Source of the DNA: a virus
Taxonomy: Duplodnaviria; Caudoviricetes
Virus record (IMG/VR): IMGVR_UViG_3300028888_000047
Span: 192,001 to 256,000 of that record
DNA: 64,000 bases
Reading direction: 5' to 3' (one strand)
Made by a program: the position numbers and the translations under genes. Position 1 is the stretch's first letter. Each line of letters opens with the position of its first letter. Of this stretch, positions 37,304 through 39,559 are shown piece by piece. The notes below the pieces were generated by a model. That model was not told where the DNA came from and searched no databases. It saw only the letters and a program-made list of their open reading frames with translations.

Positions 37304-37770
37304 ATTCGTCTTTTAATTTAATTATTAAACCGTGTATAAATTCTATTATAAAATCTATATTCACAACAATCAAAAATAAACAAAACAAAACAGTTAGAAT
37401 CAATACGCCATCAAAAAATAGTCCTATTATTCCTCCCATAATTTTATTAACTTAGTTTTTTATTTTATTTTTTTCAATCCATCGATAATATCTTCCATTT
37501 GTTCTTCCGTAATAAATACATCTGAATCAAAATGTCCATATTTATCATATAAAGTTAGTCTATATGCTGGTAAATCATTTTTCAATCTATCTTCAGAATA
37601 ATCAAGACTAACCCTTTCAGTGTCTACAAAATATTCCATATCTATTCAATTTTAAATTATTATTTTGAATAAATATGTCATAAACGTAAAAAAATACCAT
37701 ACTTACCAAATATACAAAAAAAACCTTAAAGAAACAAATCTTTAAGGTTAAATAATGTTAAAATAATCTG

Positions 37771-37858
37771 TTATGAGTGCAAGATTCGAACTTGCGGTGA
37801 GTTATTAACTCACACCGGAGCCAGAATCCGGCGCCTTAAACCCCTCGGCCAACTCACA
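37771..37858 (-). tRNA. tRNA-Gln(CUG) with a class-II long variable arm
   Basis: Acceptor TGTGAGT/ACTCATA plus A73; D arm GCCGAGGGGTTTAAGGC; anticodon arm CCGGA-TTCTGGC-TCCGG; variable arm GTGAGTT-AAT-AACTCAC; T arm GCAAG-TTCGAAT-CTTGC. Confidence 0.85.
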
Positions 37859-37863
37859 ATTTA

Positions 37864-37970
37864 AGCTGAAACCCTAGCTAGTTAAATGATTACTAAACAT
37901 CTTCATCGCCCTTGGGATGACTATCTACGACCTCTCGTACTATCAGCACTTTCACCATTTGGCTTCAGCT
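37864..37970 (-). ncRNA. unassigned ~107-nt multi-stem structured RNA
   Basis: Closing stem AGCTGAAGCC/GGTTTCAGCT, nested AAATGGT/ATCATTT, hairpins TACGA-GAGG-TCGTA and TCATC...GATGA; no ORF. Confidence 0.5.
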
Positions 37971-37979
37971 ATATTATAA

Positions 37980-38216
37980 CTAATCCCACCCCCATATTTC
38001 ATGTGACATTGGAAACCTCATTGACATTCTTTTCACAAAACTATCATTATACCATTTTTTCTTCCTGAAATACCATTTAAATTTACTATGATTTCTTCCT
38101 AAGACATGAGCAGTTGTTTTTCTCCATGACTGCCTGGCATACCAAGGTCTCTTTGTCTTTTTCAACATTTTTCTCCAAAACTTTTTTGGGGTGTTGAATT
38201 TTTTGCCTTTACTCAT
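37980..38216 (-). CDS. small very basic K/R/W-rich protein (78 aa)
   Basis: Start reassigned to MSKGKK because the longer ORF overlaps tRNA-Gln. Confidence 0.6.
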   Translation of the reverse strand: MSKGKKFNTPKKFWRKMLKKTKRPWYARQSWRKTTAHVLGRNHSKFKWYFRKKKWYNDSFVKRMSMRFPMSHEIWGWD

Positions 38217-38221
38217 ATTTG

Positions 38222-38296
38222 CCGGGGCAAACCGAGTCGAACGGTTTCTAGGAGTTCCAAAGGCTCCTGTGACATTTGCCGATACACCATACCCCG
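38222..38296 (-). tRNA. tRNA-Gln(UUG)
   Basis: Acceptor CGGGGTA/TGCCCCG plus G73; anticodon arm GGAGC-CTTTGGA-ACTCC; T arm AACCG-TTCGACT-CGGTT; enlarged D loop. Confidence 0.85.
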
Positions 38297-38306
38297 TTAT
38301 TTGAAA

Positions 38307-38326
38307 TGCCATTACACCATAGGGCA
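38307..38326 (-). pseudogene. 5' fragment of a canonical tRNA-Gln
   Basis: TGCCCTATGGTGTAATGGCA resembles the acceptor strand and D arm start of bacterial tRNA-Gln; no 3' half follows. Confidence 0.5.
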
Positions 38327-38344
38327 GTCCTATTACTCATATAC

Positions 38345-38376
38345 AAAAAATCCCATCAGTATTTCTACTAATGGGA
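38345..38376 (-). terminator. intrinsic terminator of the putative Gln attenuator
   Basis: TCCCATTAGTA-GAAA-TACTGATGGGA-TTTTTT immediately upstream of the tRNA-Gln genes. Confidence 0.85.
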
Positions 38377-38418
38377 ACATTTTATGAAAACATCCTTGGA
38401 AAAGGTCAATACAATATC

Positions 38419-38448
38419 TGTATCAACCGTTCCCATATGGTTGATACA
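38419..38448 (-). promoter_or_regulatory. protector hairpin holding the anti-terminator strand
   Basis: TGTATCAACC-ATATGGGAAC-GGTTGATACA; the loop ATGGGAAC is complementary to GTTCCCAT (38371-38378), which overlaps the terminator 5' arm. Confidence 0.7.
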
Positions 38449-38450
38449 AC

Positions 38451-38489
38451 TTAAATCTGTTGTTGCTGTTGTCGTACTATATTCTTCAT
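38451..38489 (-). CDS. poly-Gln leader peptide MKNIVRQQQQQI
   Basis: ATG AAG AAT ATA GTA CGA CAA CAG CAA CAA CAG ATT TAA, 7 nt downstream of the ATATTTAT motif (38497-38504). Confidence 0.75.
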   Translation of the reverse strand: MKNIVRQQQQQI

Positions 38490-38521
38490 CTTATTTATAA
38501 ATATTAAATTGTTTTAAATTG

Positions 38522-39473: not shown

Positions 39474-39559
39474 ATTTTTGGTAGGGTATGTTACCTATAT
39501 AGTTCCTTACCCCACCATTTTCATTTACAAAGATACAAAAAATAATTGAAAAAAAGAAA

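Follow-up and report, generated by a model that had tools for sequence, protein, structure and literature searches.

Two explanations have been offered for why phages carry tRNA genes, codon supplementation and the replacement of tRNAs depleted in the host, and phage tRNAs have been proposed to offset such host tRNA depletion (PMC10264068). A phage locus with two tRNA-Gln genes behind a short, glutamine-rich reading frame raises the question of whether tRNA-Gln could be an on-demand replacement, made only during slow decoding of Gln codons. The locus lies in a window of 64,000 nucleotides (the whole stretch of DNA analysed), part of a phage record of 317,464 bp (32% GC) with 36 ARAGORN tRNA calls and one tmRNA. 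We give a probability of about 0.68 to the reading that it encodes a ribosome-mediated, his-type transcription attenuator, by which slow Gln decoding would turn the phage tRNA-Gln genes on. Judging from its sequence, this is a real and conserved regulatory element, a variant of leader-peptide attenuation with the cognate tRNA as its output, for which we infer a pseudoknot, a polarity and an in vivo trigger as set out below.

The genome reads as code 11. TAG recoding was considered as the reason for Gln sensing and rejected, coverage being 0.795 under code 11 vs 0.81 under code 15 and TAG being a rare stop. Despite this lack of support for recoding, a conserved tRNA with a CUA anticodon, similar to an amber suppressor, is present in the otherwise code 11 genome (G000 154846-154923, minus strand; L183 15570-15647). 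The host is presumably a member of the Bacteroidota, because the phage ClpP is Lak-like and the tRNA unit starts behind a TAnnTTTG promoter element, a motif also enriched upstream of genes. The nearest ClpP sequences are those of Prevotella Lak phages at 43-44%, which makes Lak a distant relative at best. Among GenBank phages the sole match was a tRNA-Leu, and a search of the phage for GlnRS/GluRS returned no match.

All of the parts that the first-pass annotation had listed, namely the promoter motif, the leader, the 10-bp hairpin, the 11-bp terminator with its U6 tail and the downstream genes, were recovered on the minus strand (Table 1). Besides the one in the leader, the 317-kb genome has no run of at least five Gln codons, whichever strand is read, and folding of the leader region, a check proposed together with these parts, gave a z of -4.5 with 0/200 shuffles as good. 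Relatives were gathered through neighbouring proteins and an exact 28-nt motif, which yielded 17 distinct complete copies; none of the conclusions draws on the unpublished genome G094. The ATG, an Arg-CGA codon, four to five Gln codons, one further codon and the TAA are kept in all of them (17/17); the Gln codons differ at the third base only, giving seven patterns, each with both CAA and CAG, and exactly one codon has been lost in one homolog. CGA is rare in the phage (81/2569 Arg codons) yet invariant in the leader. The leader is a short ORF whose tandem control codons are under codon-level constraint, and it is probably translated, with ribosomes stalling on it.

Table 1. Features of the tRNA-Gln locus and of the related leaders (window positions unless a handle is given).
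Feature	Position	Strand	Basis
TAnnTTTG promoter element (-7) heading the Leu-Leu-leader-Gln-Gln unit	39528..39535	-	motif position kept in relatives
Phage promoter-like motif ATATTTAT	38497..38504	-	enriched before ATGs
Leader ORF MKNIVRQQQQQI and stop, 12 codons, five tandem Gln codons (38471-38457)	38451..38489	-	conserved in homologs
Helix A:B, no-ribosome or pause-type hairpin (38477-38471 pairs with 38450-38444)	38444..38477	-	alignment pairing
Hairpin B:C, 10 bp, 10-nt loop with ATGGGAAC (38436-38429)	38419..38448	-	folding
Hairpin C:D with extension burying GGGAA of the antiterminator strand (proposed protector)	38397..38435	-	folding, alignment
GTTCCCAT, antiterminator 3' strand overlapping the terminator 5' arm	38371..38378	-	invariant
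Intrinsic terminator E:F, 11 bp (38376-38351) and U6	38345..38376	-	terminator prediction
Remnant of a displaced class I tRNA-Gln, 20 nt of its 5' end	38307..38326	-	matches 5' end of intact L028 tRNA-Gln(UUG)
Atypical tRNA-Gln(UUG), first gene past the terminator	38221..38296	-	ARAGORN
Basic 78-aa ORF	37980..38216	-	conserved in relatives
tRNA-Gln(CUG), long variable arm, U1-A72	37770..37858	-	ARAGORN
Operon terminator past tRNA-Gln(CUG)	37715..37749	-	terminator prediction
Sibling codon-matched leaders	G000 173655-173460, 161497-161270; L183 1167, 10011	- (G000)	terminator each

The same alignment bears on the possibility that the region is a stand-alone small RNA or a constitutive terminator and its Gln run a by-product of an ACAGCAA motif repeated in the tRNA regions of this phage, which we consider very unlikely. 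Of the 17 homologs, 15 do have the motif in their leader, and elements like it lie elsewhere in the genome. Its register shifts among the homologs, however, it is missing in L010 and L029, and the reading frame is preserved together with the Gln codons, the ATG and the stop, on which grounds the motif explanation was rejected; the homolog that lacks exactly one codon argues in the same direction. A constitutive terminator would, moreover, cut off the tRNA-Gln genes, and the helices conserved here are mutually exclusive.

These helices overlap pairwise (A:B with B:C, B:C with C:D, and the helix between the B:C loop and strand E, loop:E, with E:F), and all are conserved. A:B pairs the Val-Arg-Gln codons with bases 3' of the stop; 99% of its cells are paired, and three of its seven pairs vary, by wobble only. 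B:C (-13.5 kcal/mol, z -4.4) has a 9-bp core that is 100% paired with a single wobble change, in L025, which preserves both A:B and B:C. C:D (-17.5 kcal/mol, z -5.1) re-uses the 3' arm of B:C, and its core is 96.5% paired with wobble variation in four pairs. The C:D extension pairs in 17/17 copies with differing sequences (p 0-0.06 each vs shuffled spacers) and its partner for the three G is in no copy a perfect run of three C: in 15 copies a G-U stands in for one of the three G-C pairs, at three different positions, and in the other 2 one G is left unpaired, so that the extension looks like a tuned competitor. GTTCCCAT is invariant in 17/17, including a first G that lies outside the terminator stem and whose 5' neighbours vary. 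The terminator itself (-14 to -17.6 kcal/mol) shows compensatory double changes at two of its pairs, each in seven sequences, and it stands between the leader and tRNA-Gln, which starts within ~50 nt; the D-to-E spacer ranges from 21 to 52 nt among homologs.

Taken jointly, A:B, C:D and E:F are 97.5% paired, as opposed to 28-46% when slid, with 14 double-change cells that are not independent events since the sequences are related; the variation in these helices is mostly wobble-preserving. The 8-bp loop:E helix is 100% paired and essentially invariant, an invariance that it shares with B:C and that is in part ascertainment, 10/17 homologs having been found by the exact 28-nt motif. The search for covariation between the loop and the terminator arm that had been advised at the outset thus gave a divided answer: the complementarity holds in 17/17, and because the helix never varies, covariation is silent on the pseudoknot. 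The wider expectation that the Gln run and the complementarity would be kept in relatives is borne out, and the 17 distinct homologs support the earlier view of a Gln-codon leader with a switchable terminator before cognate tRNA genes. It is hardly credible that all this is a chance arrangement in AT-rich intergenic DNA; loose Gln-run patterns are indeed common in unrelated DNA, but this arrangement is unique in the genome, is kept amid variable spacers, carries compensatory changes in its terminator and is always followed by tRNA-Gln(UUG).

How would the helices be wired? The first-pass annotation took the 10-bp hairpin as the protector, to be opened by a ribosome stalled on Gln codons. A ribosome covers about 9 nt past its A-site codon. 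The distance from the last Gln codon to the 9-bp B:C core is exactly 9 nt (one codon, the stop and three bases) in 17/17 homologs, so that a stall on any Gln codon would leave B:C closed; a ribosome at or near the stop alone would open it, which marks B:C as the stalled state, possible only with a ribosome on the Gln codons. Taken literally, the earlier wiring therefore yields the opposite output, and the likely protector is C:D, which had been overlooked. The trp/his-type layout assigned to the locus is accurate in that a his-like AB/CD/EF set alternates with BC, and incomplete in that it lacked helices A:B and C:D.

In the switch that we propose, ample Gln-tRNA would let the ribosome reach the stop and cover B, C would then pair with D, the extension would bury the antiterminator strand and E:F would form (OFF). 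With no ribosome, A:B, C:D and E:F would form, a state that would be OFF as well. A ribosome stalled on any Gln codon would cover A and leave B free; B:C would form first and be kinetically trapped, C:D would be blocked, and the B:C loop ATGGGAAC would pair with GTTCCCAT in an H-type pseudoknot (loop 1 = 2 nt, loop 2 = 0). This pseudoknot would block the terminator and allow tRNA-Gln(UUG), the basic ORF and tRNA-Gln(CUG) to be transcribed (ON). Since the output is the sensed tRNA, the circuit would amount to negative feedback on charged tRNA-Gln, a reading that assumes putative charging of the atypical phage tRNAs with Gln.

Computed energies are consistent with this order of events. B:C forms while D is still untranscribed, and leaving it for C:D would mean crossing a barrier of 11-15 kcal/mol. 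As a pseudoknot on B:C, the antiterminator helix has a net gain of about -5 kcal/mol (a rough, Dirks-Pierce-like estimate); in competition with the C:D extension it gains only -1.8 kcal/mol. The conserved extension supports the switch, as it is needed only if the antiterminator strand is hidden in the C:D state. For a stall to favour the antiterminator, the loop must pair as a pseudoknot, and nested folding allows the reverse: in pseudoknot-free equilibrium folding the antiterminator helix can form around the C:D core while F has yet to be transcribed (P 0.15-0.97). The antiterminator is 8 bp only and leaves the inner terminator stem free.

The nested fold gives rise to an unlikely alternative in which the same attenuator works with reversed polarity. 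On a stall, the B:C loop would hide the antiterminator strand (OFF); with the leader fully translated or untranslated, the C:D core would carry a nested antiterminator helix (ON), and tRNA-Gln synthesis would be shut down in glutamine starvation. With the ribosome at the stop and a transcript ending before F, the nested antiterminator has P 0.52-0.97 in 16/17 homologs (0.15 in L028), and this polarity has no need of a pseudoknot. Yet the nested helix is ahead of the C:D extension by merely 0.6-3.1 kcal/mol, the conservation of that extension opposes it, a 10-nt loop of such geometry is a poor hiding place, and the result would be positive feedback on tRNA shortage. A sibling leader that is stall-ON in a nested model argues against it too.

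Two such siblings precede other tRNA blocks (Table 1): a 31-codon ORF rich in Tyr, Glu, Gly and Pro lies before Glu, Tyr, Pro and Gly tRNAs, and a 47-codon ORF lies before an Asn-to-His block. Both have terminators, and both are conserved in the 401-kb relative G001 with peptides that have diverged and kept a similar composition. In a nested model of the first, the terminator arm is sequestered with a value of 0.82 upon an early stall vs 0.03 at the stop; the polarity of the second is less clean in the model. By parsimony, the stall-ON behaviour of the sibling favours stall-ON for the Gln element.

Stall-ON might also be reached without a stable pseudoknot, if the ribosome melted B:C, if a host or phage protein took part, or if slow initiation or Arg-CGA decoding were sensed. 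The invariance of the rare CGA codon speaks for this, as does the weakness of an 8-bp antiterminator facing a terminator of -14 to -17.6 kcal/mol. Whichever Gln codon the ribosome sits on, however, its usual footprint stops short of B, the CGA is accounted for by A:B pairing and the downstream tRNAs are for Gln and not Arg, and we regard this version, too, as improbable. The stall-ON switch with a pseudoknot remains our preferred reading.

Two promoter elements could deliver the leader transcript. The motif ATATTTAT has 17 copies 15-24 nt before ATGs in the genome vs ~0.8 expected and precedes the leader in relatives too, its gap to the leader ATG being 7 nt in the window and 4-8 nt in most homologs; because it lies so close to the ATG, the leader mRNA may be nearly leaderless. 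Alternatively, the leader may be read from a longer transcript that starts before two tRNA-Leu genes, an option that arises because no minus-strand terminator was predicted between the TAnnTTTG element and the leader. We take this element to be a -7 element of the Bacteroidota sigma-A type; it occupies an identical position in relatives and in a sister clade, and TAnnTTTG is enriched 15-39 nt upstream of start codons genome-wide. The promoter motif and the leader are separated by an inserted small ORF in L001 (6843-6993) and also in L012; the L001 ORF ends on a stop that shares bases with the leader ATG (ATGA), which suggests translational coupling.

Upstream of the leader, the window holds a permuted pair of tRNA-Leu-like halves, the 3' half leading (39175-39060, minus strand), with a perfect 7-bp acceptor and no anticodon loop; similar arrangements are seen in L001, L002 and L003 with other acceptor sequences. 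Between this element and tRNA-Leu(UAG) lies an insertion of ~430 nt (39050-38620, minus strand), absent from most relatives and shared with L025; a 281-nt part of it folds no better than shuffles.

Downstream of the terminator, the regulated genes match the amino acid of the control codons, though they are tRNAs rather than enzymes. The first gene is tRNA-Gln(UUG) in 17/17 homologs, with a mean pairwise identity of 61% (minimum 43%) vs 86% for the leader region, and both short-arm and long-arm bodies are found, a pattern indicating that the tRNA body is swapped repeatedly while the leader is kept. The window copy, which has C1-G72 and a 31-39 mismatch and was missed by Rfam, recurs in L018 and L030 with one 3'-end base different. 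Its sequence is preceded by the tRNA-Gln remnant, of which L018 and L030 have a comparable copy; the remnant marks a tRNA replacement event in the window. A tRNA-Gln(CUG) lies within 1.6 kb in 13/17 homologs and is lacking before the next conserved gene in L027; relatives differ in whether a class I or a long-arm body fills this slot. Long-variable-arm tRNAs with Gln, Met and Trp anticodons occur at 37770-37858 in the window and at 147543-147632 and 148502-148587 in G000; the long-arm tRNA-Gln bodies retain U1-A72 and trade places with short-arm ones from one relative to the next.

The basic 78-aa ORF between the two tRNAs, which had no match in Pfam, PHROG or the Atlas, ends in a conserved WGWD motif and lies near tRNA-Gln(UUG) in both clades; it is a candidate tRNA-binding or anti-nuclease protein. 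The structured RNA previously marked between this ORF and tRNA-Gln(CUG) (37975-37860) has a moderate fold (z -2.1) and was unmatched in any related locus.

The element is present in all 7 distinct protein-fetched loci that span the region; L003 has instead a transposase-like ORF after a truncated tRNA-Leu, where the locus ends. The sister clade, to which the basic ORF led, carries Leu-Gln tRNAs at the corresponding place and no Gln leader, so the attenuator is lineage-specific. Another conserved hairpin (a GGGTATTA-type stem) occupies the attenuator position upstream of tRNA-Gln(UUG) in L036, L037, L038, L042, L043 and L045. A covariance model detected neither a paralog elsewhere in the genome nor a copy in the sister clade. 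From the 151 Bacteroidia genomes sampled it returned ordinary 3' terminators only, among the 20 candidates scored per genome, a scope that does not amount to absence. When viral contigs and genomes were scanned with loose patterns, all matches were chance ones with no downstream tRNA, and a sequence look-up found, apart from this stretch, just one partial look-alike, which lies in another genome.

What could deplete tRNA-Gln in an infected cell? The retron Eco2 cuts host and T5 tRNA-Gln, among others (PMC12916289), and a tRNA-targeting defence such as a host anticodon nuclease is a plausible trigger; tRNA-targeting pressure would fit the rapid swapping of tRNA-Gln bodies. A broader and more tentative picture is that most tRNA genes of this phage clade may stand in blocks behind codon-matched leader attenuators; the Gln block, with its own single-amino-acid sensor and pseudoknot antiterminator, would detect a loss of functional tRNA-Gln and respond with often exchanged, resistant tRNA-Gln genes, as an inducible counter-defence. 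The element would offer a compact reporter for the replacement idea and for the hunt for a host factor that depletes tRNA-Gln. Term searches of the paper that discusses phage tRNAs as replacements found no conditional, codon-sensing expression of such tRNAs (PMC10264068). An attenuator controlling tRNA genes was not found in the literature covered, most subscription journals lying outside the search, nor was a Gln-codon attenuator or a pseudoknot antiterminator in leader attenuators, within the same incomplete coverage. If the reading is true, attenuation would be extended to a tRNA output, to glutamine and possibly to a pseudoknot antiterminator.

Neither at gathering score nor with E relaxed to 5 did Rfam return a match (His_leader, Trp_leader, other leaders and riboswitches). 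T-box riboswitches resemble the phage element as transcription attenuation that senses tRNA charging but differ in binding the tRNA directly, with no need of the ribosome (PMC4052509). No T-box match was returned by Rfam, and the alignment shows no T-box antiterminator bulge. A T-box review may, reportedly, mention T-boxes before tRNA genes. The closer likeness in layout is to hisL of Salmonella and E. coli, which has seven His codons in a 16-aa leader and hairpins AB, CD and EF, and with which the phage element has in common tandem codons for one amino acid near the leader end, a U-tailed EF terminator and, in the switch as proposed, an alternative fold when the ribosome sits on A (PMC10989985). 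The two have no sequence relation, as judged by the lack of an Rfam match; hisL senses His and controls biosynthetic enzymes, whereas the phage element would sense Gln and drive tRNA genes, and where a nested DE stem captures the terminator arm in hisL, the B:C loop would do so here, through the proposed pseudoknot. Leader attenuators are also known for synthetase genes, pheM-pheST being one case. The Cys uORF before cysS in Rhodobacterales is another (PMC8632094). Such leaders place feedback on one charged tRNA through a stall at cognate codons and terminator read-through, as the phage element would. They supply the charging enzyme, whereas the phage element would supply the tRNA itself, which helps against tRNA loss and not against amino-acid shortage.
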